Assembly (NCBI GenBank): GCA_964607165.1
Contig: CAZSIT010000003.1
Location: 78,384-142,383 of the forward strand
From: an uncultured Ignavibacteria bacterium
Lineage (GTDB): Bacteria > Zixibacteria > MSB-5A5 > DSPP01
Length of the DNA stretch: 64,000 nucleotides
Reading direction: 5' to 3'
Of the stretch, positions 6,529 to 49,874 are shown in pieces. The translations under genes were made by a program, and so were the position numbers. Within the stretch, counting starts at the first letter, position 1, and each line of letters opens with the position of its first letter. The notes under the pieces were generated by a model. The model searched no databases. It worked only from the letters and a program-made list of their open reading frames with translations, and was not told the origin of the DNA.

Positions 6529-6530
6529 CT

Positions 6531-7604: not shown

Positions 7605-8051
7605 ATGAAACTTTCCGAATTACATCCGGCCAAAGGCTCCCTTAAAAACCGCAAGCGAGTCGGACGTGGGCCCGGCTCCGGCCAAGGGAAAACGTCCGGA
7701 CGCGGACACAAAGGACAGCTGGCGCGTTCGGGGGGGCATTCCAAGCCCTACAGCGAAGGCGGGCAGATGCCCCTGCAGCGGCGAGTGCCCAAGCGGGGTT
7801 TTAGAGCGTTTGACAAAAAAGTTTATCAGGTGGTAAATCTTTCCGACTTGGCGCGCTTGAAAAATCTGGAGTCGGTAAATCCGTTGGCCTTGCAAAACGC
7901 CGGCTTAATTCGGCGGGCTGATTTTCCGGTTAAAATTTTAGGGGACGGCGAAGCTTTAGCCAATCTCACCGTTCTGGCACATGCTTTTTCCCGTGCGGCC
8001 AAAGAAAAAATCGAGGCCAAAGGGGGAAAGGTAGTCGTTCTGAATGCTTAG
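7605..8051 (+). CDS. rplO: 50S ribosomal protein L15 (uL15)
   Basis: MKLSELHPAKGSLKNRKRVGRGPGSGQGKTSGRGHKGQ.. Confidence 0.97.
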   Translation: MKLSELHPAKGSLKNRKRVGRGPGSGQGKTSGRGHKGQLARSGGHSKPYSEGGQMPLQRRVPKRGFRAFDKKVYQVVNLSDLARLKNLESVNPLALQNAGLIRRADFPVKILGDGEALANLTVLAHAFSRAAKEKIEAKGGKVVVLNA

Positions 8052-14548: not shown

Positions 14549-15720
14549 TGCGGGTTATCGTCATAGTTTTAGACTCCTGCGGGGTTGGCGAGCTTCCCGA
14601 TGCCGGAGCTTACGGGGACAAAGGCTCCAACACGCTGGGAAATTTAGCTCAAGCAGTTGGCGGTTTTTCCGTTCCAAATTTAGAAAGACTGGGCATTGGG
14701 AAAATCATCCCGATTGCAGGGGTTCGCTCCAACGTCCCCGCCTTGGGAGCATACGGTAAAATGACCTGTTTTTCGGCTGGAAAGGATTCCACGAATGGGC
14801 ATTGGGAGTTGATGGGAGTGGCGGTTACCAAACCGCTTCCGCTTTTCGCAAAAGGTTTTCCATCAGAAGTTATGAAGGAATTTGAAAGAATTTCCGGGCG
14901 CGGTTATCTCGGCAATAAGCCCGCTTCCGGCACGGAAATCATTGTTGAATTGGGAGAAATGCACGTCGCCACCGGTAAGCCGATTGTGTACACCTCCGCC
15001 GATTCGGTTTTTCAGATTGCCGCTCACGAAGAGGTTATCCCGCTCAACGAACTATATCGTATTTGCTCTGAAATGCGCAAAGTTTTAGTTGGCGATTGGG
15101 GAGTGGGGCGGGTGATTGCCCGGCCGTTTGTGGGAACTTCGAGAGAAGATTTTAAGCGCACAACCAACCGCAAGGATTTTTCGCTGTCTTGCCCGGAAGA
15201 AAATGTTTTGGACCGATTGTATTCGATAGGAATACCGACCATCGGCATCGGCAAAATCGGAGATTTATTCGCCGAGCAGGGATTATCAAAGATTGTTCAC
15301 ACCAACAGCAACCGCGATGGGATGGAAAAGCTCTACGACGAATTAAGTTATACAAGAGAGGGTTTAATTTTCATAAATTTAGTTGATTTTGATATGCTGT
15401 GGGGGCATCGGAATGACTTGGAAGGGTTCGCCAAAGGAGTTGAAGAGTTCGATCGGCTGCTTTCCGGAATAGATCAGCGGTTTCGTAGAGAAGATGTCGT
15501 TTTCATAACCGCGGATCATGGTTGCGACCCGACCACTCCTTCCACCGACCATTCGCGGGAGTATGTTCCTATTTTAGTTTATGGCGCTCAAATCAAGTCA
15601 GATGTAAATTTAGGAACACGAAGAACGATGGCCGATTTGGGTGCAACCGTGGCGGAGTTATTGGGTATCGAATGGAAAGGAGCGAGTGAAAGCTTTGTCA
15701 AAGAAATCCTGGCCGATTAA
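14548..15720 (+). CDS. deoB: Phosphopentomutase
   Basis: MRVIVIVLDSCGVGELPDA..YGDKGSNTLGN.. and ..ITADHGCDPT.. metal-site blocks. Confidence 0.95.
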   Translation: MRVIVIVLDSCGVGELPDAGAYGDKGSNTLGNLAQAVGGFSVPNLERLGIGKIIPIAGVRSNVPALGAYGKMTCFSAGKDSTNGHWELMGVAVTKPLPLFAKGFPSEVMKEFERISGRGYLGNKPASGTEIIVELGEMHVATGKPIVYTSADSVFQIAAHEEVIPLNELYRICSEMRKVLVGDWGVGRVIARPFVGTSREDFKRTTNRKDFSLSCPEENVLDRLYSIGIPTIGIGKIGDLFAEQGLSKIVHTNSNRDGMEKLYDELSYTREGLIFINLVDFDMLWGHRNDLEGFAKGVEEFDRLLSGIDQRFRREDVVFITADHGCDPTTPSTDHSREYVPILVYGAQIKSDVNLGTRRTMADLGATVAELLGIEWKGASESFVKEILAD

Positions 15721-16096
15721 GAAACTGATTGCCGCCGCTCGGCGGGCACAGAAAAATTCTTATTCGCCCTATTCAAAATTTGCCGTTGGCGCTGCTTTCT
15801 TCGGGGAGGACGGCAAGATTTATTCCGGCACGAACGTTGAGAACGGGTCTTATGGCTTGACCATTTGCGCGGAGAGAACCGCGGTTTTCGCCGGAGTTTC
15901 GGCCGGATGCAGGAAATTTCAAGTAGGGGTTATCGTTTCAAATTCCGAGCGGTTTCCAACTCCTTGTGGGGCTTGTTTGCAGGTTTTGACCGAATTTTCT
16001 CCAAAGCTCCCTTTGATATTGGTGAATCGGGACGGAATCGCCAAAGAAACTTCGGTCGAAAAACTTTTGACAGCCCCTTTTCGGCGGGGGAGTTAA
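15686..16096 (+). CDS. cdd: Cytidine deaminase
   Basis: Zinc motifs CAERTAVF and PCGACLQVL. I chose GTG 15686, preceded by AAGGAG, over the track start 15641, which overlaps deoB by 80 nt. Confidence 0.9.
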   Translation: MKALSKKSWPIKKLIAAARRAQKNSYSPYSKFAVGAAFFGEDGKIYSGTNVENGSYGLTICAERTAVFAGVSAGCRKFQVGVIVSNSERFPTPCGACLQVLTEFSPKLPLILVNRDGIAKETSVEKLLTAPFRRGS

Positions 16097-16097
16097 T

Positions 16098-16922
16098 TTG
16101 GCCGACCTGGAGGTCCTGGAGCCGGGAAGGCTGGCCCGTTTGATGGAACAGGCGGATGAAACCTGGCTTTTAACTCTTCGGCAACTGGGCAGGGAGGAAA
16201 TCTGGGAAAAAAAGAGGAAGACACGGATGGAGTCAAAAAATACCGAAACATTCATCCGCAGCGTCTTGGAACTCAACCGCTCCTCGGTAGCCGCACGCCT
16301 CGAGTCCACCAATCTCGATTTTAAAGCAACTTCCAAGGAAGTTGAAAAACTTTGCGCCGATGCCCTGGAAAATAATATAGGAGCGGTTTGCGTTTCACCC
16401 TTCTGGACTTCCCTGACGGCTTTCTTGGTAGGCCGAAAACTTCGAGTTGTTTCAACCTTGGATTTTCCTTTAGGCCAGAACAAAACGGCGGTGAAAGTAA
16501 AACAGGCGTTGGAGGCCTGCCAGGATGGCGCCTCCGAATTGGATATGGTGGTAAATCATTCTTTTCTTGTCGAAAATAAACTGGCCGATTTTTTTAACGA
16601 TATTGCCGAGGTCAAAGCGGCATTGTGGGAAGGAGTGGGGTTGAAAGTCATTGTTGAATTTTCTTTGCTTGCTCCGGACCAAAAAGTTTTGGGTGCTCTG
16701 GGAGTTTTCTATGCCGGAGCCGATTTGATTAAGACCTCTACAGGTGTTTTGGGCAAAACCGCACGGGAAGATGTGGAGCTTTTGTTTCGAATCTTTGGCC
16801 CATCTTTCCCCATCAAAGCGGCCGGCGGCATTCGCACTCGCAAGGATGTGGAATCGCTTTACGAAGCCGGGGCCGAGCGATTGGGCACTTCCACGGCAGC
16901 TTCCTTGTTGAAAGAATTCTGA
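16098..16922 (+). CDS. deoC: Deoxyribose-phosphate aldolase (start uncertain: TTG 16098 or ATG 16227)
   Basis: Schiff-base lysine block ..ADLIKTSTGV.. and ..IKAAGGIRT... The N-terminal ~45 aa are atypical for DeoC. Confidence 0.88.
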   Translation: MADLEVLEPGRLARLMEQADETWLLTLRQLGREEIWEKKRKTRMESKNTETFIRSVLELNRSSVAARLESTNLDFKATSKEVEKLCADALENNIGAVCVSPFWTSLTAFLVGRKLRVVSTLDFPLGQNKTAVKVKQALEACQDGASELDMVVNHSFLVENKLADFFNDIAEVKAALWEGVGLKVIVEFSLLAPDQKVLGALGVFYAGADLIKTSTGVLGKTAREDVELLFRIFGPSFPIKAAGGIRTRKDVESLYEAGAERLGTSTAASLLKEF

Positions 16923-18217
16923 TGTTTCTAACCGCCGAACTGATTGCTAAAAAACGGGACGGCAAGAAACTGTCAGAAGAGGAAATTTCTTTTTTAGTCT
17001 CGGAGTTTACCTCTGCCGCTATACCCGATTATCAGATGGCCGCCTTTTTGATGGCCGCTTTTATTCAGGGTTTAGACCGCAGGGAAACTTACTATCTGAC
17101 CAAGGCGATGCTTGAGTCGGGCCGAAGTTTTGATTTGTCTTCGATAAAGTTGCCCAGAGTGGACAAACATTCCACCGGAGGGGTTGGCGATAAGGTTTCG
17201 CTGATTCTGGCTCCCTGGGTGGCGGCTTGCAACGTGGCGGTGCCTATGATTTCCGGGCGAGGGCTTGGCCATACCGGCGGCACGCTGGACAAACTTGCCT
17301 CCATTCCGGGTTTCCGCACCGATTACTCCATTGAAGAGTTCACCGAAATTCTACGGCGTAATAATTTCTTCATGGCTGGGCAGACGGTGGAGATTGCTCC
17401 GGCCGATAAAAAAATCTACGCTTTGCGGGACGTGACCGGCACAGTGCCTTGCATTCCCCTTATCACCGCTTCGATTTTGAGCAAAAAGTTAGCCGGTGGG
17501 GCGCAGGCGATTTTGTTTGACGTCAAAGTCGGCCGCGGCGCCTTTATGCGCACTACAAGAGAAGCCAGAGAGCTGGCACGCTGGCTCTCTTCGGTTTCCC
17601 GGCAGTTCGGCGTCAAAGCAGAAGCGGTTTTGACCCGAATGGATCAGCCCTTGGGCCGTTTCGTCGGCAATCTTTTGGAAGTGCGTGAGGCGCTCGATTT
17701 TCTTTCCAGTAAATTCGAGTCGGACTTGTATCAAGTTACCGAACATCTGGCGGTACGAATGCTTGCATTAGCGGGTATTGCGATAAAAGATGCGCGCAGG
17801 CTTTTATCTGCCCGCTTGGCAAATGGTTCAGCTCGGCAGCGTTTCCGGGAGTTGGTGCGGCAGCAAGGGGGATTTGTGGGAGCCATCGACAATCCCGATT
17901 TATTGCCAAAAGCGACCTATCAGATTCCCGTTCGCGCTCTTCGCAACGGCTGGGTTTGGTCGTTGGATGCCCGCGAAGTCGGCCTGCTCGCCATCCAGTT
18001 GGGCGCCGGTCGAAAAACCGTTCAGGATAGAATCGATTACACGGTCGGGTTTGAGTTTTTAAAGAAAATAGGTTCGAGAGTTGAGAAGGATGAAATTCTG
18101 GCCTACGTTTATTCCAACAGCAACTTGGTTGGAAAAGAAGTGGCTATGGAGTTGGAGCAACTGTATGAAATTAGAAAAGGAAAGAAAAAACTACTAAGCC
18201 TAATTTTAGGCAAATAA
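16922..18217 (+). CDS. pdp: Pyrimidine-nucleoside (thymidine) phosphorylase
   Basis: ..DKHSTGGVGDKVS.. and ..SGRGLGHTGGTLDKL.. signatures; 431 aa. Confidence 0.95.
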   Translation: MFLTAELIAKKRDGKKLSEEEISFLVSEFTSAAIPDYQMAAFLMAAFIQGLDRRETYYLTKAMLESGRSFDLSSIKLPRVDKHSTGGVGDKVSLILAPWVAACNVAVPMISGRGLGHTGGTLDKLASIPGFRTDYSIEEFTEILRRNNFFMAGQTVEIAPADKKIYALRDVTGTVPCIPLITASILSKKLAGGAQAILFDVKVGRGAFMRTTREARELARWLSSVSRQFGVKAEAVLTRMDQPLGRFVGNLLEVREALDFLSSKFESDLYQVTEHLAVRMLALAGIAIKDARRLLSARLANGSARQRFRELVRQQGGFVGAIDNPDLLPKATYQIPVRALRNGWVWSLDAREVGLLAIQLGAGRKTVQDRIDYTVGFEFLKKIGSRVEKDEILAYVYSNSNLVGKEVAMELEQLYEIRKGKKKLLSLILGK

Positions 18218-18267
18218 AGGCCGAACGGCCACCCAACCTTCGCTTTCGTGAGATTCGAAAAGCGGGG

Positions 18268-18294
18268 GCCCGGGAGACCCGGCTTTTCATTTTA
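18268..18294 (+). terminator. Possible intrinsic terminator after pdp
   Basis: Short GC stem CCGGG-aga-CCCGG followed by CTTTTCATTTT, between convergent genes. Confidence 0.4.
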
Positions 18295-18300
18295 CAAAAA

Positions 18301-19290
18301 TCACTTCAGCAAGTTTACGTTCGCCGACAGTCCAACCTGTAAATTCAACTTTGCCACTTGCTGAATCCCATTCACCTTCTGGTAAACCGGCAGCTGGGCG
18401 TAGCTATAAGCAGAAAAAGCTTCACCGAACTGGAAACTGGCGCCGGGGCTTAAGAAAATCCACGTTCCACCGGTGTTGGAGCGGAACTCGCCGGTCGTTC
18501 CCACATCGGCAAAGTCCTGCCAGCGGCCGTTGGCCTGAAACAAAAGCGAGAATTTGGGGAAAATCTGGTATTCCGTACCCAGGTGGGCCATTATCTGTTT
18601 TCCGAATCGGTAATCGTTTTTTCCTTTTCCATTGACCCGGTAATTCAAGCTGGCGTTTATCGGGAGAGTGCTGTAAAGCCCTCCAGCCAGCGTGCGCACA
18701 CTTGCAAGCGGCAGATGCAAGTTCATTCCAAAAAAGCCGTCCCACGAGCCAGTGCCCGGCTGGATGGTCACTTCTGCTTCTTCGGTCCCTTCGTCGTTTT
18801 TTACGTCGGTAACTCCCGTTGGGGTTTTAATTCCCGCCAATAGGCTCAACTCGCCGGTCGAATTGGCAGCGGAAAAGGCCATCGAATACTGACCGCTTAC
18901 CGTCACATCCCCCAGCCCATCGAAATGAAAGGTTTCCAGTGAGCTATCCTCAATGTGGCTGTGGTCGCGGATGATGAAAGGGACTTCCACGCTCACTCCC
19001 AACGAACGGGTAAGGCCGTATTGGGCCGCCAAAAGGGCGCGCTGGTTTTTGGTCTGCACCTCGTCGTGGGGATTTGGAAGCGCGCCGACAAACGATTTTT
19101 TGGAGCCGACGTTAATCTGGTTCTCGTTGATGTACTCGTGCGAAAGCTGGAGCTGCAACAGCCCCTTGCTGAAGCCGCGGTGGGTGTTCAAAGGACAAAC
19201 CGCCGCGCCGCAGCTGGCACCGGCGGTTTTGATTGAAACTCCGACGCAAAAAGTCAAAAACAATAATAAAAGAAAATTTTTTCTTTTCAT
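18301..19290 (-). CDS. Putative outer-membrane beta-barrel protein
   Basis: Signal peptide MKRKNFLLLLFLTFCVGVSIKTAGA, alternating beta-strand-like pattern, aromatic-rich strands. Family is uncertain; it resembles the transporter / MetA-pathway-like OM family only by general features. Confidence 0.7.
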   Translation of the reverse strand: MKRKNFLLLLFLTFCVGVSIKTAGASCGAAVCPLNTHRGFSKGLLQLQLSHEYINENQINVGSKKSFVGALPNPHDEVQTKNQRALLAAQYGLTRSLGVSVEVPFIIRDHSHIEDSSLETFHFDGLGDVTVSGQYSMAFSAANSTGELSLLAGIKTPTGVTDVKNDEGTEEAEVTIQPGTGSWDGFFGMNLHLPLASVRTLAGGLYSTLPINASLNYRVNGKGKNDYRFGKQIMAHLGTEYQIFPKFSLLFQANGRWQDFADVGTTGEFRSNTGGTWIFLSPGASFQFGEAFSAYSYAQLPVYQKVNGIQQVAKLNLQVGLSANVNLLK

Positions 19291-19369: not shown

Positions 19370-19798
19370 TTAAGCGGGAGGAGGATGAAAGACGGGATTT
19401 TGGAAGTCCGTTTTTAAAGCCGCAGATTCAACCGGCTCGAAATAGGATGCTTGGACGAAACGGAGAATTTCGCTGTTTCCCGTTACATTACCAAAATTTT
19501 TATCAGCCGTTGGTACGGGAACACTTTTTGCCGGGTTGCAGTCAGCGGCATAAAGGCAACAGGTTTCATTGCTTGAAGAAGGCTGTGTTGGGCTATTTGA
19601 TGGCGAGTAACACATTTCACATTTGGCCTCTTGGCCGTCCGGGCCGCTGTGGTCGCAGCAGCATTTTTTGTTCTGGCAAACCCCGCCGTTTTTTTGGGTT
19701 TGTGACTTGACGCCGGCTACGACAAAAATTAGGTCGCACTGGCTAAAAATAAAACTGGCAAGCAACAGGGTTGGAACCATCTTAGCAAACGGCTTCAT
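19370..19798 (-). CDS. Hypothetical secreted Cys-rich protein
   Basis: N-terminal hydrophobic signal (MVPTLLLASFIFSQC). Cys cluster ..GGVCQNKKCCCDHSGPDGQEAKCEMC..ETCCLYAADC... Sits directly upstream of the OM barrel on the same strand. Confidence 0.55.
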   Translation of the reverse strand: MKPFAKMVPTLLLASFIFSQCDLIFVVAGVKSQTQKNGGVCQNKKCCCDHSGPDGQEAKCEMCYSPSNSPTQPSSSNETCCLYAADCNPAKSVPVPTADKNFGNVTGNSEILRFVQASYFEPVESAALKTDFQNPVFHPPPA

Positions 19799-19866: not shown

Positions 19867-21306
19867 TTAACAGGGAAACGGATTGCCCAAAAAGACGGTG
19901 TTGAGCAGAATCACCGGGTCGGGAGGGTTGGGAGTGCCGGAGCAGTCGAAATCGCAGGCGGCTGTGCCGGCAGGGGGGGCGATTCCCAGAAAAACGCAAT
20001 TCAACAACAGCACCACGTCGGCGGAGGTTAAAACGCCATCGCCATTCAAATCTCCTCTCAAAAAAATTATCCGGCGCAATGAGCCTGTGTTGGGAGCAAA
20101 GTTGATAAACTGTTGGAGCCAATATAGTGCCCCGTCCGGGCCGACTTGAAAATCGCCGCCGGAAACCAGGCCGGCGGCCCAGGTGGTGTCATTGGGTTGT
20201 CCCGGCACGGGAGGGGCAAAATTCCAGACCGAGCCCGATTTTTTAATCCGGCGCATAAAACCCTGATAGTAGTCGATGTAAAAATAGTCGCTGTTGTATT
20301 CCGCCGGAAAGTTGTAAAAATTAGGCCCGTTTGTGGGGCGATATAAACCGGCGGAGATTATCGAGGCGGTGAATCCCGAGCGGTCGTAATAGATAATCGG
20401 CGCAATAAAGCTTCCGTTGCCTGAACCGCCCGGTTCGCTACATCCGCCGACCACACGCACCATAGGACCTTCCCTAAACGGCCAGCCAAAGTTTTCGCCG
20501 CCGGAACATTCGTCGGCTTCTTCATAGTTGTTCTGACCGACGTCAGCGATGTAAAGCTTACCGGTTTGGGGGTCAACGTTAAAACGGAACGGATTGCGCA
20601 GGCCGCAGCACCAGGCCAGCCGGGCGTTATCTGAACCGGGGAAAGGATTATCGGACGGAATCAACAATGATTTGAGGGCTGGACCGCTGCCGGGTTGGGG
20701 CAGGCTATCCACCGAAATACGCAGAATCACTCCTTTGAGTGAACTGGAATCCTGCGCTTTACAAAAATCGGCATCTTCTCCCAGCGAAGCGTAGAGCCGT
20801 CCATCCGTGCCAAAGCGCAAGGTCCCGCCGTTGTGATTGCTGGCGTTGTCGGGAATATCGGTGATGATGTTATAGCGGCTTCCCAGAGAAAGATTGTGAC
20901 TGTTCGGATTGGACAAATCCCCGGTAGCGGTGAACATCGCGATGTAAATCGTAGAGGTGCCGGTGTGGTCGAAATAGACGTAAACATACGGTCGGGACGG
21001 CCACTGGGGATCAATGGCAATGCCCAAAAGCCCTTGCTCGTTACCGATCGTATTCACGTCCGCAATCGTTGTAATCGGGTCGGTGGTGCTTATCGCTCCA
21101 TTAACCACCATCCGGATTTTTCTGGTTTTCTGCTCGGTGAAAAGTATCCGCCCATCCGGCAGAAAAGCGAAAGAGGATGGCTGGGATAAACCGGGTTCGA
21201 TTACCTGATCGTAAAAACCGGTAGGGACGGTGGCGGCGGTTAAAAAACTTTTAAGACAAAAGACGAGAATAACAGTTGTGCTGAAGATTCCAGTTGTCTT
21301 TTTCAT
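19867..21306 (-). CDS. PQQ-dependent (soluble glucose/sorbosone-type) sugar dehydrogenase with dockerin-like C-terminal module
   Basis: Signal peptide. Blocks ..[11 protein letters not shown].., ..[15 protein letters not shown].. and ..[29 protein letters not shown].. are typical of the SGDH beta-propeller. C-terminus is [46 protein letters not shown]. Confidence 0.88.
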
Positions 21307-21348
21307 AAAACTTTATACGGTGGAAAATTGGATTGGTTGAAAATTAAA

Positions 21349-22171
21349 TCAGCAGGGAAACGGTTGCCCAAAGAAGATTGCGAGCAATTCAAGAACCACG
21401 TCCGCCGGAGTGAACAGCCCATCACAATTCACGTCACACAATTCCGTGCCGCCTTCTGGGGGAATGCCCAGAAAAGTACAGTTCATAAGCAAAATTGCAT
21501 CTTCGGCAGTCAAAGCACCATCCATATTCAAGTCACCTTTGTTTACGACCGTAATAACGCCTTTGACGAAGTTGACGGGTACGTCGGTGCCTTGCGAATC
21601 GATGAAACGAATAATTCTGGTCGGTAAACCGACCACCGAATCCAATGTATTCCGAGGAATTGTCACAGAATCTAACTCAAATTGGCCTGGGAAGGATAGT
21701 ATTGTATCAAATTTGATGTCAACAAATGGCAGGCGGCTGGGGTTAGGGCCAATCGGAGGTGAATCAATCCCCGGCTCAGCTATGGTTGTGATACCAAAGC
21801 TGTCAGGACTATTGCTATGATAGTAGGAAAAATTGGGAATTCTGGTCGGAAAAGTCGGCTCACCAAAAGGCCCCGGCGGAATCAGAAAGTTAAAAACCCC
21901 TGAAAAAAATCTTGTGTCGCTGCAATTAACAATGCGGGAGAGAGTAGCATAGGCCCCGGCGGAAATCGACTTTGTTACTATGAGGTAGAATAATCATGCT
22001 CACACTATCTTTGTTTGTAATCCAGACCCGCACTTTCAGCACTGCCGATTGGCACGGCCCGGCCTCGGGGAAAACAGTTTTGGATTCGATGATGATGGAA
22101 TCGCGGGGGTCGGGGGTGGCGGAGGCAATAGTTGCCCCCAAGAGAATTAAACCGGCGAGGAGGGTTTTCAT
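21349..22171 (-). pseudogene. Frameshifted paralog of the 22305-23093 gene (cohesin-like + dockerin-like protein)
   Basis: The N-terminal ORF 21926-22171 matches the neighbour in its first 34 aa. The homologous reading frame continues in another frame (..AYATLSRIVNCSDTRFF...NFVKGVITVVNKGDLNMDG...FGQPFPC). A one-nt indel near 21970 is inferred by hand alignment. Confidence 0.7.
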
Positions 22172-22191
22172 CTTCGGCTTTTCCTTTCCGA

Positions 22192-22223
22192 CTAAAGGTA
22201 AGCGTGAACAGGAGTTTAGTCAA
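22192..22223 (-). promoter_or_regulatory. Candidate promoter of the frameshifted copy (TTGACT-17 nt-TACCTTTAG)
   Basis: On the minus strand: TTGACT, 17-nt spacer, then TAccTTTag, which resembles the TAnnTTTG -7 box. About 20 nt upstream of ATG 22171. Confidence 0.35.
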
Positions 22224-22255
22224 GGAATTTCGGAAACTTTTTGGTGTGTGGTAGT

Positions 22256-22271
22256 CGAGGCTTTAGCCTCG
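22256..22271. repeat. GC hairpin CGAGGC-ttta-GCCTCG in duplicated spacer
   Basis: Perfect 6-bp stem with 4-nt loop. T-run follows on the plus strand, A-run precedes on the minus strand. Confidence 0.6.
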
Positions 22272-22304
22272 GATTTTTCTAAGAAAGGGGGAGGGGTTGG
22301 AAAA

Positions 22305-23093
22305 TCAGCAGGGAAACGGTTGCCCAAAGAAGATTGCGAGCAATTCAAGAACCACGTCCGCCGGAGTGGATAGCCCATCGCAGTTCACGTCGCATAGTTC
22401 AACCCCGCCGTCCGGCGGGATGCCTAGAAAGGTGCAATTCAAAAGCAACACTCCATCTTCTGCAGTCAAAGTGCCATCCATATTCAAGTCACCTCTGTTA
22501 ACAACAGTGATTGTGCCTTTGACGAAGTTGACATTGACTGTTTTGCCCTGAAGGGTAATGAACTCAATCGTTCTATTGGGTGGAATGGTTACTGAATCCA
22601 ATTCAAATTGGCCGGGGAATGAAAAAACAGTGTCGAATTTGATATTCAACAGAGGAGTACGGGTAAGAGTGGGTGGTAATTCACTGCACTCAATCGGGTC
22701 ATAAGTTCCCGTGAACATGAACGAGTCGGGCGGGTTGCTATGGTAACGTGAAAAATCGGGGACACGGTTTCCCAACGGCGGACAGTCACTGGCGTCGGGC
22801 GGGTACAGGAATTCAAAGACGGTTGAGCTGACCCTCGTTGCGCTACAATTGGCTGGGCGAGAAATTGTGGCGTAGGCATTGCCGGTTAAGGTTTTTGACT
22901 CGAAAGGAAGAGTGACATTGCCTAAGGTATCCTTGTTGGTAATCCAAACGCGCACTTTCAACACGGCCGATTGACACGGCCCGGCTTTGGAAAAAACAGT
23001 TTTGGATTCGATGATAATAGAGTCGCGGGGGTCGGGGGTGGCGGAGGCAATAGTTGCCCCCAAGAGAATTAAACCGGCGAGGAGGGTTTTCAT
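22305..23093 (-). CDS. Secreted protein: cohesin-like N-terminal beta-sandwich (inferred) + dockerin-like C-terminal module
   Basis: Signal peptide MKTLLAGLILLGATIASA. ..IIIESKTVFSKAGPCQSAVLKVRVWITNKD..VTLPFE.. and ..LLNIKFDTVFSFPGQFELDSVTIP..VNVNFVKGTITV resemble the first and last strands of cohesins. C-terminus is GDLNMDGTLTAEDGVLLLNCTFLG..CDVNCDGLSTPADVVLELLAIFFGQPFPC. Confidence 0.8.
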   Translation of the reverse strand: MKTLLAGLILLGATIASATPDPRDSIIIESKTVFSKAGPCQSAVLKVRVWITNKDTLGNVTLPFESKTLTGNAYATISRPANCSATRVSSTVFEFLYPPDASDCPPLGNRVPDFSRYHSNPPDSFMFTGTYDPIECSELPPTLTRTPLLNIKFDTVFSFPGQFELDSVTIPPNRTIEFITLQGKTVNVNFVKGTITVVNRGDLNMDGTLTAEDGVLLLNCTFLGIPPDGGVELCDVNCDGLSTPADVVLELLAIFFGQPFPC

Positions 23094-23113
23094 CTTCGGC
23101 TTTTCCTTTCCGA

Positions 23114-23145
23114 CTAAAGGTAAGCGTGAACAGGAGTTTAGTCAA
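23114..23145 (-). promoter_or_regulatory. Candidate promoter of 22305-23093 gene (TTGACT-17 nt-TACCTTTAG)
   Basis: Identical to the element at 22192-22223. Confidence 0.35.
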
Positions 23146-23176
23146 GGAATTTCGGAAACTTTTTGGTGTGTGGTAG

Positions 23177-23194
23177 CCGAGGCTTTAGCCTCGG
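23177..23194. repeat. GC hairpin CCGAGGC-ttta-GCCTCGG in duplicated spacer
   Basis: 7-bp stem. Copy of the 22256-22271 hairpin with one substitution that lengthens the stem. Confidence 0.6.
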
Positions 23195-23226
23195 GTTTTT
23201 CTAGGAAAGGGGGAGGGGTTGGAAAA

Positions 23227-24843
23227 TCAGCAGGGAAAAAGCGTTCCCAGGAAAATGACGTTTAGCATAACCACAATATCGGATGAGGTGGCAAGGCCAT
23301 CGCAGTTGACGTCGCAAAAAGCAAAGCCCGACTGCGGCTCGATTCCCAAAAAGATGCAGTTTAAGGCCAGCACTACGTCAACGGGACTTAAGGCGCCATC
23401 GCCGTTCAAATCGCCTTTGATACCATTAAAATTGAGATAACAACGGGAAGTGGCCCCGCAAAGGTCGGTGATTTGGACGCAGGCAGAGAAAATCCCGGTT
23501 TGAAAAGAAGTCGGCGTCCACTGCACCAAACCGGAAGGAGAAACGGTCAAGCCGTTTGGGCCGGAAAGGAGCGTGAAAGTTAGATTCCCGGCGTCGGCAG
23601 GGTCGGGGTCGCTTCCATTGAGCTGTAGTGAGAGAGGAACGTTGGGCGGAGCAGAGATAGCACTACTTGGGCAGTTGGATACGGTTGGGGCGGCATTGGT
23701 CACCACCAATTGAAATTCGCAGGTGTCGGCAGCCGGGCCGGGATTGCAGCTTCCAAAGCGGTCAAAAACTTTTACTCTAACGGTTTGGGGCGAAGCGGTA
23801 ATATCGGTGCAGGAAGTTTGGTAAGACCAGTTGCCGGAAGAATTAGTCGTCCCCGGGCCGTTTAATTGGACAGTGGTAAGCACATCGCTGGCGTCCGGGT
23901 CGGAAAGCACAAGCTGGTTGGTTGCCAAAGCGCCGTGAGAAAAAGTTATCGTTGCCGGGGTAGAGCACACGGGAGGGTTGTCTATCACGTTTAAACTAAA
24001 AGAACATTCTGCGGCGATGCTGGAAGGATTGCAGCCTCCGCAGTCGCCGATGGCGCGCACGGTAATCGGAATGCGGCCAAGAGGACACTGGCCGGAGAAA
24101 CCGTAAAGACCGCTCGATAGATTAATCGTTCCCGGTCCGGAAACGACCGACCAAGTGACCGGGCTGCAGGGAGTGTCGAAGTCATAACTGAAAGTCCGCC
24201 CGTAAAGGAGATTGGAAGAGGCGGGACAATTTGGTGGAACATAGGGTGAAGCAGGGTTGCAAACGTTTATGAAACCTTTGACAAAGCTAACTTCGATTTT
24301 GTTGCCGTTCCGGTCAACAAATTGGATAGTGGAGGCGGGAGCAATTAAGGAGGAATCCAATTGCACCTGTCCCAGGCCGGAGGCGCCGACCGAATCAAAT
24401 TTGATATCCAGGAGCGGAACTCTGGTTGCGTTTTGTGGAACCTTAGAAGCGGCGTCAGTAGGGTCGTGGGTGCCGGCCCAGAGAAAAGTATCGGGGGAGT
24501 TGCTGTGGTAGTTGTTAAAATTTCCAATTCGAGTGGGAAGCTGCCCGGCCGGGAGCAAAATGTCAAATACCGCCGCCGCGGTGCGTGCGCCGCAGCCAGC
24601 TGGCCGAGAAAGCGTTGCATAGCCCGCCCCGGCGGTGATTTTCGATTCAAGTGGCAGAGTAATATTTGCCAACGAATCTTTGTTGGTGATATAGACTCTG
24701 ATTTTCAGTCCGGCCGAAGCGCAAGCGCCGCTTATCGGCTGCACGGTTTTGGATTCGATGATGACCGAATCGCGGAAGTCGGGATAAGATTTTGCAATGG
24801 TTGTTAAAGCAAGCAGGAAAAGCACCGTCAGCCCGATTTTCAT
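23227..24843 (-). CDS. Secreted protein: cohesin-like N-domain + Cys-rich Ig-like (He_PIG/cadherin-like) repeats + dockerin-like C-terminal module
   Basis: The N-terminal 190 aa are paralogous to 22305-23093 (..FRDSVIIESKTVQPISGACASAGLKIRVYITNKDSLANITLPLESK.., ..LLDIKFDSV..IEVSFVKGFINV). Middle repeats carry ..LLSGPNGLTVSPSGLVQWTP... C-terminus is GDLNGDGALSPVDVVLALNCIFLG..CDVNCDGLATSSDIVVMLNVIFLGTLFPC. Confidence 0.85.
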   Translation of the reverse strand: MKIGLTVLFLLALTTIAKSYPDFRDSVIIESKTVQPISGACASAGLKIRVYITNKDSLANITLPLESKITAGAGYATLSRPAGCGARTAAAVFDILLPAGQLPTRIGNFNNYHSNSPDTFLWAGTHDPTDAASKVPQNATRVPLLDIKFDSVGASGLGQVQLDSSLIAPASTIQFVDRNGNKIEVSFVKGFINVCNPASPYVPPNCPASSNLLYGRTFSYDFDTPCSPVTWSVVSGPGTINLSSGLYGFSGQCPLGRIPITVRAIGDCGGCNPSSIAAECSFSLNVIDNPPVCSTPATITFSHGALATNQLVLSDPDASDVLTTVQLNGPGTTNSSGNWSYQTSCTDITASPQTVRVKVFDRFGSCNPGPAADTCEFQLVVTNAAPTVSNCPSSAISAPPNVPLSLQLNGSDPDPADAGNLTFTLLSGPNGLTVSPSGLVQWTPTSFQTGIFSACVQITDLCGATSRCYLNFNGIKGDLNGDGALSPVDVVLALNCIFLGIEPQSGFAFCDVNCDGLATSSDIVVMLNVIFLGTLFPC

Positions 24844-24937
24844 AGCAGTTTTTTCTCCAGAGCCAAACTACGCTGGCGGGGAATTAAAGTCAAGCTTTAA
24901 TGAGAAATGTAAACGTTGTGGTTTGACCCCCTCTTAG

Positions 24938-24962
24938 TCTCCCCCTTAAATACAGGGGGAGA
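24938..24962. repeat. REP-like perfect hairpin TCTCCCCCT-taaatac-AGGGGGAGA
   Basis: 9-bp perfect stem read directly, in an ORF-poor spacer. Confidence 0.55.
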
Positions 24963-25259
24963 GAATGAGTTTGTCTGGGACTAAAGCCTCGACTCACAAT
25001 AGGAGTTTAATAAGTAGGTGAAAAAAAGAGGCCTTGGCAGCGCCCCCCGCACCTTTCTTAGCTTTGGGTTTTCCTTGTGTCATCCCTAATCTGAATCCCC
25101 CGGCCCAAAGCATCCCCCGTGGTGCACAAGCCGCCAAGGCCTGTATTTTTTGTATCGGCAGGATTGAGAAATGGTTAACTCTGGAGCGATGTGCGGGTTA
25201 CAAAAACCCCTGGCCGGGCAGGCAACCTGCACTACGAAACTCCACGTTGTGGTGAGGAA

Positions 25260-25281
25260 GGGCAACCACAGGGGGTTGCCC
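25260..25281. repeat. REP-like hairpin GGGCAACC-acaggg-GGTTGCCC
   Basis: 8-bp perfect stem followed by ctacggaTTTGTTTTT. Confidence 0.55.
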
Positions 25282-25303
25282 CTACGGATTTGTTTTTGGG
25301 TAG

Positions 25304-25323
25304 GGGCGGTTCGCGAACCGCCC
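25304..25323. repeat. REP-like 20-nt perfect palindrome GGGCGGTTCG/CGAACCGCCC
   Basis: Read directly. GC-rich palindrome with no loop. Confidence 0.55.
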
Positions 25324-25354
25324 TTGTGGCGTGCACCTACAAAAAGACGGGGTG

Positions 25355-25382
25355 AGGAGAAATGCGGCATTGAAAATGCCGC
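25355..25382 (-). terminator. Probable intrinsic terminator of the 25418-26392 gene
   Basis: On the minus strand: GCGGCATT-ttc-AATGCCGC followed by ATTTCTCCTC, about 35 nt after the stop codon. Confidence 0.5.
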
Positions 25383-25417
25383 CTGCTAATAGAAAGAATT
25401 TTCGGAAACGATTTACG

Positions 25418-26392
25418 TTACAGGCTGGCGGAGGAATTCAGGGGGCAGCCGTCGCCGTCCACCTTGGTTCCGCGCGGAGTATCAGGACACAAATCCAACC
25501 GGTCGAGAATGCCGTCGGCATCCTGATCAATTGAGCAGCCGTCGGCATCCACCACTTCGCCGGGTCGCGTGTTGTTGTTCAAATCACGTTTGTCGGGGAC
25601 TCCGTCACCGTCCGAGTCGGCATCCTTGCCAAAGTAAAAGTTCAAACGGGTGTGGAAATTGGTGACGGCGTTGAAGAGCCCGTAGCCGTTTTTGCTTTTG
25701 ATGTTTTGGTCGCCTTGGAATTTTGAGAGGATTTTGGTGTTGTAATATAAATCCCCGCCAAAATCGAGGGCGACAAATTTGTTCAGGAAAATTTCCCCGC
25801 CGGCGCCGAAGGATAAAATTATGCGTTGGTCCTTTGCGGTGAAGATCTGGCCGTTCAAATCTTCCAGCATTTTCAGCTGTCCGGAAGCGTCGGTCATTTT
25901 CCAGCTGTTGTAGCCCAGCCCGAAACTTATATAATTATCAAATTTCCAGAACGAGCGGGAGGGGCGTTGGAGGGATAAAACGTAGAAGTTGTTGACCAGC
26001 CGTTCGGAGCTGTCGGTGGTGGCAAAGGTGAAACCGGCGGTTTGATTGGGGCCGATGCTTGCCCGGCGGGATTGAGCCTGGAAGTAATGGAAGGCAAGAG
26101 CCTGGTCGTTTAACTCCCGTTTGAGAATAAACCCTTTGGGAAAAGCGACCGTCCAGGCATCGGCGTTTTCGGTCAAAACCGGCTTGGAGAGGCCCGATTC
26201 CAGCGACAGAGCTGAATGGCCCAATAAAGTCGAATGCCAGGAGATAGCATTGGCAGATGAATTGGGCAAAAACAAGCCCAAAGCTGCCAGTATGGCCTGA
26301 AAAGCGTATCTGTTTATGCGTTTCTTCAGCACTCTATTAGCATTATCGGCCTTTTGGGGGTAAATTTTCACCCCTTTAGTTTCCGATACCAT
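25418..26392 (-). CDS. Outer-membrane protein with C-terminal thrombospondin type-3 (Ca-binding) repeats, lacking an OmpA_C domain
   Basis: Hydrophobic signal region (..AFQAILAALGLFLPNSSANA) and a beta-rich body. C-terminus is DADSDGDGVPDKRD..VVDADGCSIDQDADGILDRLDLCPDTPRGTKVDGDGCP. The true start may be internal (GTG 26332). Confidence 0.75.
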   Translation of the reverse strand: MVSETKGVKIYPQKADNANRVLKKRINRYAFQAILAALGLFLPNSSANAISWHSTLLGHSALSLESGLSKPVLTENADAWTVAFPKGFILKRELNDQALAFHYFQAQSRRASIGPNQTAGFTFATTDSSERLVNNFYVLSLQRPSRSFWKFDNYISFGLGYNSWKMTDASGQLKMLEDLNGQIFTAKDQRIILSFGAGGEIFLNKFVALDFGGDLYYNTKILSKFQGDQNIKSKNGYGLFNAVTNFHTRLNFYFGKDADSDGDGVPDKRDLNNNTRPGEVVDADGCSIDQDADGILDRLDLCPDTPRGTKVDGDGCPLNSSASL

Positions 26393-26566
26393 TAATAAAG
26401 GGCTTCGGTGGAGCCCCGGAAGGAGGGTGAGGTCGATTTTTTTACTTGCAACCAGCTTTTAACTTCGTATTATTGTGGGTGGGAGTGGTTGGAATTTTAC
26501 AGCAAGTGGTTGTCACCAACGAGTGTGATAGTTGATAATATCAGGGGTTATAGGTTTGGAGGATTG

Positions 26567-29467
26567 GTGAAAAAGCGCCTTTTTTGGTTTACAGTTTTAC
26601 TTCTCGGAATTTTTTCTTCTGCTTTTGCGGTCGCGCCGCATCCCGATTTGGTCAAAAAATTAAAAGAAACCGGAGAGTGGGACGAGTTTTTGGCGCATTA
26701 TAAAAGCTTGGGGGACTTTGACCAGCCAACTTCCCATCGGTATCGTTTTACCCTTTCCCTAAGAACGACCGCTGGCGCGGTTCCGCCCGATACCTTGAAG
26801 GCGGTGGTGATTTATGCCTATCCGTCCGACCGCCCGCCTTCCGCGGACGGGATAAACGTCAGTCGGGCGAAATTGGACTCGATTCTGTTTATCTCCAACC
26901 CGACTGGCACGGTGACCGATTATTATAAAGAAATTTCTTATGGTCAGACGGTAGTGGTTGGAACCGTTTTCGGACCTTATCAGCTTCCGGGGACGAATGC
27001 CGCTTACACATTTGGTGCTTATGGTATTCCCGCTACTAATTTTACCACGGATGCCATTCGGGCGGCGGATTCCGCGGGGGTTGATTTTTCACAGTTTGAC
27101 GCCGACGGGGATGGGGTTGTGGATGCGCTCTTTATCGTTCATAGCGGCCCAGGAGCGGAGGAAACCGGGCGGCTTACAGATATCTGGTCGCACGCTTCGA
27201 GCATCGCGCCACAGAAGAGAGATGGAAAGTGGCTAAGCGATTATTCCATCGAACCGGAGCAGCAGTCCGGGCCGATACCGATACAGATTGGTGTCTTTTG
27301 CCACGAAGCCGGCCACGCTCTTTTTGGCCTGCCCGATTTGTATGACACTGATGGCACTTCGCAAGGAGCGGGGGCGTGGTGTTTGATGAGCTCGGGCAAC
27401 TACAACAACAGCAGCAAAACCCCCACGCATATGTCGGCATGGTGCAAAAAACAGGTGGGGTGGCTGACTCCCATCAGTTTATCTGCTAATCAAAACAACG
27501 TTTCTCTTCCCGCCGTGGAGTTTACTCCGACCATTTATCGGCTTTGGACCAACGGCACAGGCGGATCCGAATATTTTCTTTTGGAAAACCGCTATCGACG
27601 CGGTTTTGACGCTTACAATCCCGGGGGCGGGCTTTTAATCTGGCACATCGACGAAGCAGCCGGGAGCAACAACAACGAAAACCGGTATATGGTCGGTTTG
27701 ATGCAAGCAGATGGTCTGCGGAATCTGAATTTAAATGCAAATCGGGGAGATGCGGGGGACCCATTTCCGGGCAACACTAATAATCGAAATTTTGATGAAT
27801 TTTCCAATCCAAACAGTAAGAAGAATGTTCCCGTTCAGGCCGCGCAGGTGGCGGTATTTAACATTTCCAACGCCGATTCGGTGATGACCGCCGATATGGA
27901 GGTTACGTATGGAAGGCCAAGGGTGACTTCTTTCAGCCCCACGCTGAACGAGATTTCAGGAAACGGGAACGGTGTCCCCGATCCGGGAGAAACTATTACT
28001 TACTATTTTTCCTTTATAAATGCCTGGCTTGCCACGCCTAACTGGAACGTTTTAGTTCGATGCAACGATACAGCCATTCATTTTGCCGACAGCACGGCTT
28101 TGATAAGTTCTTTGGTTGGGTTGGGGGCCTCCACTTCCACATCGCCTGACCCGGTTACTTTTACTGTTTCTTCCGGCATCGATCGCTCTAAGCTGGACAG
28201 CTTTTTCGTTTATGCCTGGAACTTTGACAGCTCCTACACCTATCAAACCGCCTACGTCCAGCAAATCGGGCCGACGCAGATTCTGATTGTGGATGACGAC
28301 CACGGGCGGGCGCTGGAGAATTACTACAAGCTATCATTCGACACAGTTTTGGTGCCGACCCGCATCTGGAGCGTGACAGTGCGGGGCGTTCCGCCGGCGG
28401 AAAGCCTTTCGCTCTACCGCTACGTGGTTTGGTACACGGGCAACGATTCGACTTCACTTTTGAATAGCTCGCGTATTGCCTCCTTGTCCGGCTATATGAA
28501 CAGTGGAGGGCGTCTATTTTTGACCGGCCAGGGAATGGCTCAATCGCTTTGGAGCACGGCGGATTCCGTATTCCTGCGGAACTATTTTCACTGCCGGTTC
28601 ACCAACGCCCAGCCCGTATCCGTCTATGCCGAAGGGGTGAGCAGCGAGCCGATTTCCGATAGTGTCCGAATGGTCTTGTTGGCCGGTGACGGGGCCGGCA
28701 ACCAAACTCAAGTGGATCGTCTTACTTTTGTCGATGGCCGGGCGGACAAGCTTTTTACTTATACCAGCACCAAGGGAGATACGACCGGGCCGGTAGGGGG
28801 GGTGGCCTATGCCGACTCAATTTATCGAGCGGTTTTTCTGGGATTTGGTTTTGAGGCAGTTAATTCATCCGCGCCTTCTGTTCATAGCGCAAAGACGCGC
28901 TCTTTTGTTTTGCGCCGGATATTGGACTGGTTTGACAGCGCCAGCCCGACTGGACTGGCGGTTCCCTTTATCTCCTCTCTGCCGCAAACGTTTTCCTTTT
29001 CAGCCATCAGTGGCGGAGCTTTGCCTCCGGCGCAGAATTTAAACATTGAAAACACCGGCGGAGGCACACTGGTCTGGACGGCGGCGGAAAATCCGGCGGT
29101 CGGCTGGCTTTCGATAACTCCGAGCAGCGGCACTGCCGCGCCCGTTTCCAATGTCTCTATTTCGATAGATTCGACCAATTTGGTTCCGGGAACGTATATC
29201 GATACGATTGTCATCAGCTCTCCGGGAGCTTTTAATAACCCGCACAAGACCGTGGTCACCTTTACGGTGAACGCCGGGCGGGGCGATATGGACCAGGATG
29301 GGGTTTTAGAATTGGCGGATGTGGTGTTGCTGTTGGACTGTACTTTTCTGGGCGTAGGCACCTGTCCGCTTTCCATTGCCGACATCAACTGCGATGGAAT
29401 TTTAACCTCTGCCGATGTTGTGTTGCTTCTTATCGAATTGTATTACATTACGCCTCCGCCTTGTTAA
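26567..29467 (+). CDS. M6 (immune inhibitor A-like) secreted metalloprotease with Ig/BACON-like domain and dockerin-like C-terminal module
   Basis: GTG 26567 is preceded by GGAGG and gives signal peptide VKKRLFWFTVLLLGIFSSAFA. Zinc site is ..FCHEAGHALFGLPDLYDTDG.., with ..GGGLLIWHIDE... C-terminus is [53 protein letters not shown]. The track start 26408 was rejected because it would leave only 15 nt to the divergent gene. Confidence 0.88.
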   Translation: MKKRLFWFTVLLLGIFSSAFAVAPHPDLVKKLKETGEWDEFLAHYKSLGDFDQPTSHRYRFTLSLRTTAGAVPPDTLKAVVIYAYPSDRPPSADGINVSRAKLDSILFISNPTGTVTDYYKEISYGQTVVVGTVFGPYQLPGTNAAYTFGAYGIPATNFTTDAIRAADSAGVDFSQFDADGDGVVDALFIVHSGPGAEETGRLTDIWSHASSIAPQKRDGKWLSDYSIEPEQQSGPIPIQIGVFCHEAGHALFGLPDLYDTDGTSQGAGAWCLMSSGNYNNSSKTPTHMSAWCKKQVGWLTPISLSANQNNVSLPAVEFTPTIYRLWTNGTGGSEYFLLENRYRRGFDAYNPGGGLLIWHIDEAAGSNNNENRYMVGLMQADGLRNLNLNANRGDAGDPFPGNTNNRNFDEFSNPNSKKNVPVQAAQVAVFNISNADSVMTADMEVTYGRPRVTSFSPTLNEISGNGNGVPDPGETITYYFSFINAWLATPNWNVLVRCNDTAIHFADSTALISSLVGLGASTSTSPDPVTFTVSSGIDRSKLDSFFVYAWNFDSSYTYQTAYVQQIGPTQILIVDDDHGRALENYYKLSFDTVLVPTRIWSVTVRGVPPAESLSLYRYVVWYTGNDSTSLLNSSRIASLSGYMNSGGRLFLTGQGMAQSLWSTADSVFLRNYFHCRFTNAQPVSVYAEGVSSEPISDSVRMVLLAGDGAGNQTQVDRLTFVDGRADKLFTYTSTKGDTTGPVGGVAYADSIYRAVFLGFGFEAVNSSAPSVHSAKTRSFVLRRILDWFDSASPTGLAVPFISSLPQTFSFSAISGGALPPAQNLNIENTGGGTLVWTAAENPAVGWLSITPSSGTAAPVSNVSISIDSTNLVPGTYIDTIVISSPGAFNNPHKTVVTFTVNAGRGDMDQDGVLELADVVLLLDCTFLGVGTCPLSIADINCDGILTSADVVLLLIELYYITPPPC

Positions 29468-29521: not shown

Positions 29522-29875
29522 TTACTTTTTTTCTGCTGCTTTGGGCTTGGGATTTCCCCCGTGGCAATAAACGCAGCTTACTTTGGGAGCGTCTTTGTAA
29601 TTAAAATACTTCTCATTGATTTCATTTACCATTGTCTGCATTACCCGCGCTTTTTTGAACTCCTCTTTCGATTCGTCGGCATAATCTTTGGTGTGGCAGT
29701 GCTCGCACTTCACCCCCAGCTCTTTGTTGTAGGCAGCCATTATCCGCATCATCTCCGCCTTGTTGGCCGGTTTTAGCACCTTCAGGTTTTTGAAGCCTCC
29801 ATCCTGCGGGATGACTTGAGAAGCGAAGAAGACGGCTGCGCAGAGCATCAAGAAAAAAGGGGTAATTTTTTTCAT
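29522..29875 (-). CDS. Small secreted c-type cytochrome, two CxxCH sites
   Basis: Signal peptide. CEHCH and CVYCH. ..FKNLKVLK..M..IM..LGVKCEHCH.. resembles reaction-centre-cytochrome-type small cytochromes. Confidence 0.8.
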   Translation of the reverse strand: MKKITPFFLMLCAAVFFASQVIPQDGGFKNLKVLKPANKAEMMRIMAAYNKELGVKCEHCHTKDYADESKEEFKKARVMQTMVNEINEKYFNYKDAPKVSCVYCHGGNPKPKAAEKK

Positions 29876-37193: not shown

Positions 37194-37204
37194 GAGTACA
37201 AGTG

Positions 37205-49867: not shown

Positions 49868-49874
49868 GAGGAGG

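Follow-up and report, generated by a model that had tools for sequence, protein, structure and literature searches.

A cysteine-bearing dockerin subtype encoded beside predicted cohesin-fold proteins in a Zixibacteria-like bacterium: a probable non-cellulosomal assembly locus

Why do a sugar dehydrogenase, a metalloprotease, and three paralogous secreted proteins, all encoded within 10 kb, end in the same short module? This question is raised by a stretch of 64,000 nucleotides (contig CAZSIT010000003.1; hereafter the window) from a Zixibacteria-like diderm bacterium, in which the list of open reading frames (ORFs) with translations shows one C-terminal module shared by five ORFs between positions 19867 and 29467 (Table 1). 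Cohesin-dockerin pairing is best known from Gram-positive cellulosomes. We propose, with a probability of about 0.68, that the locus is a non-cellulosomal cohesin-dockerin assembly system in which cysteine-containing dockerins (Doc) borne by enzymes bind cohesin-like domains (Coh) of neighboring gene products.

A six-frame motif scan and a scan of all ORFs with a profile hidden Markov model (HMM) of the family covered the whole window and found exactly five copies of the module, which confirms the observation of the first-pass annotation that five proteins in 10 kb share one end. The family HMM matched these modules with E-values of 2e-24 to 5e-32. From the glycine before the first aspartate to the last cysteine, the module spans 62 residues in four copies and 61 in the M6 metalloprotease. 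Pairwise identity is 43–58%, and it rises to 87% between two recent paralogues. Four cysteines occupy identical positions in four modules, whereas in the M6 protein the second cysteine has moved from just before loop 2 to a 'GVGTC' position earlier in the linker. All five modules end in Pro-Cys followed by the stop codon (5/5), the M6 protein with ...YITPPPC. The composite pattern that had been proposed for the module stands in its component motifs. However, it fails as a literal expression because the spacer after FLG is 9–10 residues long instead of 5–8, and the 538-aa protein has Leu-Ala where Leu-Leu is demanded. The signal peptides claimed for every carrier are visible by eye as signal-peptide-like N-termini on all five, provided that the M6 gene starts at TTG 26564 or GTG 26567. 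One of these codons, and not GTG 26408, is most likely the true start; the sequence GGAGGA lies immediately upstream, and a normal signal peptide (KKRLFWFTVLLLGIFSSAFA/VAP) results.

A dockerin is defined by two tandem segments of about 22 residues; in each, a loop of 12 residues binds Ca2+ (through ligands at positions 1, 3, 5, 9, and 12) and leads into a helix. The calcium ligand pattern D-x-[ND]-x-[DS]-G...D is retained in 10/10 loops of the five modules, and all ten conform to the fuller pattern D-x-[ND]-x-[DS]-G-x-x-[TSNEL]-x-x-D with a hydrophobic helix after it. The two loop-helix (F-hand) repeats have nearly identical helices (DVVLxLNxVFLG). When a profile of the five modules was searched against the PDB sequences, the best matches were all dockerins (2y3n_B, 1.6e-8; 3ul4_B, 3.2e-6; 5lxv_B, 9e-5; 1ohz_B, 8e-4). 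The profile of the 262-aa protein family likewise found only dockerins above noise, all of them via its last 60 positions. The AlphaFold2 model of the module has a predicted local distance difference test score (pLDDT) of 94.2 and helices at residues 17–29, 37–40, and 51–62 according to DSSP. A Foldseek search of the PDB with this model returned dockerin chains for its first 39 matches, the best being 4uyq_B (TM 0.80, root-mean-square deviation 1.8 Å). PF00404 is precomputed on many relatives, and some have already been named automatically as 'dockerin type I repeat-containing protein'. As judged from profile matches and the predicted fold, the module is a type-I-like dockerin of a cysteine-bearing subtype, which supports its earlier description as dockerin-like.

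Type I dockerins (PF00404; 1OHZ_B, 2Y3N_B, and 4UYQ_B) share with the module the duplicated 12-residue Ca2+ loop plus helix, the short middle helix, and a length of about 60–70 residues. In both cases, the domain sits at the C-terminus of secreted proteins, its near-symmetric helices would permit dual binding, and a C-terminal tail with a Pro takes the place of the classical 'clasp' (FPV). The module differs from them in having two to six cysteines, with an invariant cysteine at position 4 of loop 2 and a near-terminal Pro-Cys, a pair of accessory cysteines (one where helix 1 ends, the other in the linker), and a G-x-P-x-P-C tail. Its borderline Pfam score and its diderm, Zixibacteria-like host also set it apart. 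An NCBIfam scan of the carriers matched no described anchor or sorting family, including signals of the PEP-CTERM, GlyGly-CTERM, MYXO-CTERM, and LPXTG types (exosortase, rhombosortase, or sortase substrates), in which a short motif precedes a transmembrane helix and a basic tail. No anchor or sorting family described in Pfam or NCBIfam corresponds to the variant with the cysteines and a terminal Pro-Cys. Models of the sorting domain of the type IX secretion system (T9SS; PF18962/TIGR04183) matched none of the five carriers. The proposal of a shared attachment tag distinct from these domains is supported. The module was also considered as a variant of the T9SS sorting domain; this was rejected because the fold is different and no model matched.

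What could these dockerins bind? The N-terminal portion (~180 aa) of the three paralogues has a predicted cohesin fold that Pfam does not detect. The AlphaFold2 model of the 262-aa protein, built from 66 aligned homologues, has a pLDDT of 89.8 and a predicted template modeling score (pTM) of 0.80. It comprises a beta-sandwich at residues ~24–197 and the three-helix module directly after it; cohesins are characterized by a sandwich of nine beta-strands with jelly-roll topology. In a Foldseek search of the PDB, ranks 1–47 were all cohesins with a probability of 1.00; the best matches were 4dh2_A (2.9e-7), 6kgf_C, and 2xdh from Archaeoglobus fulgidus (8.6e-7). An HMM of this cohesin family indicates that the 538-aa protein (8.5e-53), which also has a Pfam Big_9 match (5e-10), and the frameshifted gene, in which the match is split over two frames (HMM positions 2–48 and 47–168), hold the same domain. 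The 262-aa protein has 120 homologues, mostly from metagenome-assembled genomes (MAGs) of Zixibacteria. The first-pass annotation had rightly described three paralogous proteins carrying the module, but their cohesin fold, which makes them the probable receptors, had gone unrecognized. With this predicted fold in the paralogues, the shared tag becomes part of what is probably a complete docking system.

Among known cohesins (PF00963), the modeled sandwich invites comparison especially with 2XDH of A. fulgidus and with the type III/autonomous cohesins 2ZF9 and 4N2O of R. flavefaciens. The A. fulgidus proteins also resemble those of the window in combining cohesin and dockerin in one polypeptide, as Bayer in 1999 and Haimovitz in 2008 are said to have described. 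The window cohesins differ from known ones in having no sequence match to Pfam Cohesin or PDB cohesins, in their length of ~180 residues with insertions, in the absence of a linker to the dockerin, and in their tandem gene arrays. Their membership applies at the level of predicted fold and context. On this basis, they form a new cohesin family, one that escapes detection by sequence models.

The scan for relatives revealed how these genes are arranged elsewhere. In a genome collection, the family was found in only two species representatives, both of Candidatus Zixiibacteriota, and a metagenome scan added 54 loci. Across 63 loci and the window, 143 ORFs were tagged; they include 59 Coh-Doc, 40 other cargo-Doc, seven cohesins with a T9SS sorting domain, two Doc-Doc-Coh-Doc, and one Coh-Coh-Doc protein (P0040, L001 10591–12033). 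Locus L001 (MAG PMV_8.32) encodes Coh-Ig-Doc (Ig, immunoglobulin-like), several Coh-Doc, and Coh-Coh-Doc, followed by a GSDH-Doc, a TSP3-repeat protein, and an M6-BACON-Doc; compared with the window, its TSP3 and M6 genes lie on the opposite side of the cohesin genes. The window's GSDH-Doc protein is 76.5% identical to its counterpart in L001 (12813–14363), the TSP3-repeat protein 59% (15569–16531, likewise adjoining the M6-Doc gene), the M6-BACON-Doc protein 60% (16648–18690; further orthologues in L014 and L034), and the 538-aa Coh-Ig-Doc protein 45% (6385–7986). The set of Coh-Ig-Doc, Coh-Doc, GSDH-Doc, and M6-Doc recurs in the window, L001, L014, and L034. A pair of Coh-Doc and M4 thermolysin-Doc recurs in L003, L033, and L035, and Coh-Doc is also repeatedly paired with FG-GAP-Doc and with BNR-Doc. 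In 30 long loci, the density of cargo-Doc genes is 2.25 per 10 kb within 2 kb of a cohesin block, compared with 0–0.44 per 10 kb at 2–10 kb, and 15 of these loci have a cargo gene within 500 bp of the block. Contigs encoding the window's 262-aa protein are not on record, and those encoding P0035 are only 2 kb long.

The module profile (A1) matched 7,776 clusters at E ≤ 1e-3 and 599 at E ≤ 1e-10 (50% identity level); the lower-scoring clusters include other dockerin types, and the share with the cysteines and terminal Pro-Cys is known for the top matches only. Two homologue searches with the module profile returned 24 and 52 matches, all short fragments and a poor basis for a carrier census, which was drawn from the best 150 matches of the cluster-representative search. 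The named sources of relatives are almost all Zixibacteria. In 62 large carriers, the cargo includes FG-GAP (14), beta-helix/NosD (8), HYR (7), and SBBP (6) domains, as well as Ig-like, BACON, BNR, M6, and S8 domains; no glycoside hydrolases were seen among them. Pfam Dockerin_1 reached E < 1e-4 in only 19 of these 62 proteins. Clostridial and ruminococcal cellulosomes carry glycoside hydrolases, whereas the cargo here consists of proteases, a dehydrogenase, and FG-GAP and BNR proteins.

A link to the cell surface is suggested by an exchange of C-terminal domains. Some cohesin homologues end in a T9SS sorting domain instead of the dockerin, and the swap is precise: the last cohesin strand, VNFVKSxxTV, is followed either by KGDLN... 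of the dockerin or by ...LSQNYPNPFNANTQITFALP...KKMLLIK, a typical T9SS type A sorting domain. One such cohesin (L004) belongs to the same genome as the L001 cluster. Within this one cohesin family, the type A sorting domain (PF18962/TIGR04183) and the module take each other's place at the C-terminus, with surface localization probable for both. However, the former is a beta-sandwich, whereas the latter is a three-helix Ca2+ module unrelated in fold and sequence. The swap suggests surface anchoring. The window itself encodes three proteins with T9SS sorting domains, in agreement with those first noted downstream, together with PorU-like and PorV-like proteins. Since M6-type proteins with a sorting domain and with a dockerin are both present, the organism uses both tags on M6-type proteins.

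In the proposed mechanism, the enzyme-borne dockerins would dock in a Ca2+-dependent manner onto the cohesin-fold domains of the adjacent paralogues; we infer this binding, and any specificity in the pairing of cohesins with dockerins, from fold and gene context. Because the cohesin proteins themselves end in a dockerin, they can act as adaptors or chain. The Coh-Doc proteins, with the dockerin fused without a linker, may thus serve as adaptors or be joined head to tail, and Coh-Coh-Doc and Doc-Doc-Coh-Doc proteins may do the same. Cohesins with a type A sorting domain, attached to the outer membrane by PorU/PorV, would be the anchor. The cargo is non-cellulolytic and includes, besides a PQQ-type sugar dehydrogenase, proteases of the M6 and M4 families as well as FG-GAP, BNR, and beta-helix proteins.

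A comparable arrangement has been inferred for the Cloacimonadota 'Ca. Stygibacter', with dockerin-bearing enzymes and a cohesin scaffoldin that carries a T9SS sorting domain (PMC8542988). Both cases concern uncultivated bacteria known from metagenomes, with dockerin-tagged enzymes, including peptidases, and cohesins with a T9SS C-terminal domain (PMC8542988). However, 'Ca. Stygibacter' has one giant scaffoldin with Pfam-detectable tandem cohesins and carbohydrate-binding modules (CBMs) (PMC8542988), whereas many small, single-cohesin Coh-Doc adaptors with cryptic cohesins are found here. The system described here also differs in its cysteine-bearing dockerin subtype, and no CBM or glycoside hydrolase cargo was seen in it. 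Cohesin and dockerin modules that belong to no cellulosome have been reported from both bacteria and archaea (PMC9012536).

The role of the cysteines was considered on the basis of 283 retrieved proteins, in 171 of which the module is at the extreme C-terminus. The conserved cysteine is the last residue in 113 of the 171, and one, two, or three residues follow it in 32, 23, and 3 (58 in total); 'PC' stands at the module end in 156/171. The statement that a cysteine is the very last residue therefore holds for the five window modules, but across the family the cysteine is near-terminal. With the cysteines numbered C26, C40, C44, and C68 after the 68-residue module alignment A1, classification of the C-terminal modules (496 domain instances) gave 148 with all four, 26 with only the loop-2 cysteine (C44) and the terminal one, and 22 with three. 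When the cysteines from position −8 onward are counted, 151/181 distinct modules have an even number (two in 21, four in 92, six in 37, and ten in 1), and an upstream cysteine at about −5 co-occurs with a second cysteine in the linker (23 versus 2 cases). Because of the even counts and this co-occurrence, the cysteines most likely form disulfides within the module, stabilizing a small domain outside the cytoplasm. According to the co-occurrence statistics, C44 and the terminal cysteine would form the core pair, and C26 and the linker cysteine the accessory pair. Of the two possibilities raised at first, disulfide stapling is thus backed statistically, whereas C-terminal processing is unlikely because about one-third of the modules extend one to three residues beyond the cysteine and N-terminal copies of the module exist. 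An intermolecular disulfide between module and cohesin was rejected because the cohesin part is devoid of cysteine in 46/66 proteins.

The dockerin of 5LXV likewise has DLNCDG in loop 2, and the R. flavefaciens structure papers that list this PDB entry mention no dockerin disulfide. In the Doc-Doc-Coh-Doc protein (P0028, L011/L012 9749–11014), the N-terminal dockerin has a cysteine at loop position 4 in both repeats. A few relatives depart from the common pattern. P0245 lacks the loop-2 cysteine but has one at −1 and the terminal one, possibly forming a covalent N-C clasp. P0020 also lacks the loop-2 cysteine, but a cysteine is present where helix 3 makes its first turn, and P0162 has lost both the loop-2 and the terminal cysteines.

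Several points weigh against the proposed assembly system. Pfam Dockerin_1 scored the five modules at 24.0 (the 538-aa protein), 21.8, 17.6, 13.1, and 10.1 bits, so that only one of them passes the cutoff of 22.9. Pfam Cohesin gave no match at E ≤ 1 on the three paralogues, and the 262-aa family profile found no cohesin among the PDB sequences. Profile searches and predicted structures are therefore the basis of both assignments. The sequences used for the statistics are mutually related, and some of the loci are overlapping assemblies (L015/L016, L011/L012, and L018/L031). No cohesin with a T9SS sorting domain is encoded in this window. The dockerin proteins have only Sec-type signal peptides and no evident route across the outer membrane, and assembly could instead be periplasmic. 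Finally, as we reason from the antiparallel helices 1 and 3 of a dockerin, loop 2 lies at the module end opposite loop 1, so the favored bond between the loop-2 and C-terminal cysteines would span opposite ends of the module and fits the canonical topology poorly. In the 'intramolecular clasp' of canonical dockerins, which often uses a C-terminal Pro, the C-terminal tail packs against residues −1 to −3, at the end of loop 1 (PMC3821032). The conserved Pro of 'PC' aligns with the clasp position, and the G-x-P-x-P-C tail, with its six residues, may be barely long enough to run back along helix 3.

The same genes could also be read as those of a self-assembling surface polymer. Coh-Doc proteins would mainly be joined to one another in head-to-tail fashion, or be folded back on themselves, and build up a non-covalent fiber or sheath with enzymes as only occasional chain terminators, and the fast-evolving tandem paralogues would vary the surface layer. 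The predominance of Coh-Doc among the architectures (59/143) suits this idea, as do the tandem arrays of three to six Coh-Doc genes in L001 and L002. The cohesin genes are the most diverged members of the cluster between the window and L001 (43–45% identity, versus 59–77% for their neighbors), and in the mosaic paralogues a variable cohesin core is framed by conserved ends. In addition, the pTM of the two-domain model suggests a defined mutual orientation. However, the cohesin genes stand in tight linkage with cargo genes that bear this dockerin, and binding of a dockerin to the cohesin type of its own protein is without support here. We regard a polymer as unlikely, and it would be a variation of the assembly system rather than an alternative family assignment.

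It is improbable, in our estimation, that the module is an orphan, that is, a dockerin-like Ca2+-binding domain with a stabilizing or ligand-binding function, beside N-terminal sandwiches that are adhesin- or Ig-type look-alikes of cohesins and not receptors. Such cases have precedent, in that Peer et al. are said to have reported in 2009 that many dockerin-bearing genomes are without recognizable cohesins. The failure of Pfam Cohesin and the moderate target TM values to cohesins (0.5–0.66) fit this explanation. However, all 47 of the best structural matches (47/47) are cohesins, the clustering with dockerin cargo is strong and recurrent, and scaffoldin-like Coh-Coh-Doc and Doc-Doc-Coh-Doc proteins exist.

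The export of the cargo invites a further thought, to which we give little credence. The dockerin may be an indirect device for T9SS or surface targeting: cargo exported by Sec would dock in the periplasm onto cohesins with a sorting domain, either directly or via a Coh-Doc chain, and leave the cell as a complex. The disulfide-locked Pro-Cys tail would then stabilize the module mechanically and against proteases. If this is true, the periplasmic docking route is a piggy-back branch of type IX secretion whose building blocks are those of the cellulosome.

It is very improbable that the terminal Pro-Cys is a sorting or processing signal read by a dedicated export or attachment enzyme (with lipidation or a covalent link via the last cysteine) as the equivalent of a T9SS sorting domain: the almost constant C-terminal position and Pro-Cys ending among the sequences analyzed, the exchange with the sorting domain on the same cohesin family, and the lack of another evident outer-membrane route for the carriers would suit such a signal, but the module is predicted to be a folded, soluble helical domain without a transmembrane segment and not a tripartite signal with one, no NCBIfam sorting-signal family matched, 58/171 modules continue past the cysteine, N-terminal copies occur in Doc-Doc-Coh-Doc proteins, the cluster genes conserved between the window and L001 include no candidate for a processing enzyme, and the even cysteine counts point to disulfides.

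With the assembly system as the preferred reading, Zixibacteria, a whole uncultivated lineage, appears to combine a dockerin subtype that bears cysteines with a cohesin family invisible to standard domain models. The system would display proteases, a dehydrogenase, and adhesin-like proteins and is probably tied to the outer membrane via type IX secretion. The literature searched contained no report joining Zixibacteria and dockerin, and a looser search on Zixibacteria with cohesin, scaffoldin, or cellulosome likewise gave none on Zixibacteria among the best-ranked results. The dockerin subtype with the cysteines and terminal Pro-Cys is new in that no described family corresponds to it; the small zero-linker Coh-Doc adaptors in tandem arrays and the Zixibacteria host are also new. 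A domain type can now be assigned to proteins mostly annotated as hypothetical, and cohesin-dockerin systems have probably been under-counted wherever cohesins were sought by sequence alone. Small disulfide-containing cohesin and dockerin pairs could also be orthogonal parts for engineering protein assembly in oxidizing compartments.

Table 1. Features of the window relevant to the docking locus and to type IX secretion.
Feature	Position	Strand	Details
GSDH/PQQ-type sugar dehydrogenase with C-terminal Cys-dockerin, 479 aa	19867–21306	−	Module 19870–20055; Pfam GSDH 9e-36, Dockerin_1 17.6 bits; family HMM 3.6e-28
Frameshifted Coh-Doc paralogue	21349–22171	−	N-terminal piece 21926–22171; C-terminal piece, in frame 21349–21993, ORF 21349–21666; dockerin 21352–21537
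Coh-Doc protein, 262 aa	22305–23093	−	Signal peptide; predicted cohesin-fold domain ~22503–23036; Cys-dockerin 22308–22493 directly after
Coh-Ig-Doc protein, 538 aa	23227–24843	−	Cohesin-like domain; Big_9/He_PIG Ig-like domains; Cys-dockerin 23230–23415
Secreted or outer-membrane protein with C-terminal thrombospondin-type-3 Ca2+ repeats	25418–26392	−	Weak TSP_3 match
M6 metalloprotease with BACON and C-terminal Cys-dockerin	26408–29467	+	Module 29282–29464; 1019 aa as listed; TIGR03296 8.6e-60; Pfam Peptidase_M6 and BACON_2; family HMM 2.3e-24
S8 peptidase with T9SS sorting domain	37151–38947		
PorU-like C25 peptidase with sorting domain	43321–47247	+	Peptidase_C25 1.7e-84; FlgD_ig/Por_Secre_tail
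PorV-like protein	47282–49867	+	PorV 1.1e-12; weak LysM match
M6-like protein with T9SS sorting domain	49854–53210		

Scans of the 64-kb window for Rfam families and tRNAs gave no match. GC skew is positive in every 2-kb bin of 1–64000, with a cumulative skew that rises monotonically, and the long ORFs outside 18–31 kb are nearly all on the plus strand. Two small genes flank the cluster. A cysteine-rich ORF of 142 aa (19370–19798, minus strand), with a signal peptide and no family match, adjoins the GSDH-dockerin gene. A gene for a small cytochrome c with two CxxCH motifs (29522–29875, minus strand; CytoC_RC-like, 4e-11) lies shortly beyond the M6 gene.

The frameshifted paralogue has a mosaic identity at the DNA level to the neighboring gene for the 262-aa protein. 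The 5' untranslated region and signal peptide are 91–93% identical and the dockerin 84–85%, compared with ~60% for the cohesin core. The frameshift lies at about 21926–21993, where the similarity to the neighbor collapses. Possible causes of this mosaic are gene conversion affecting the ends, a diversifying cohesin core, and a chimera that arose in assembly at a repeat.

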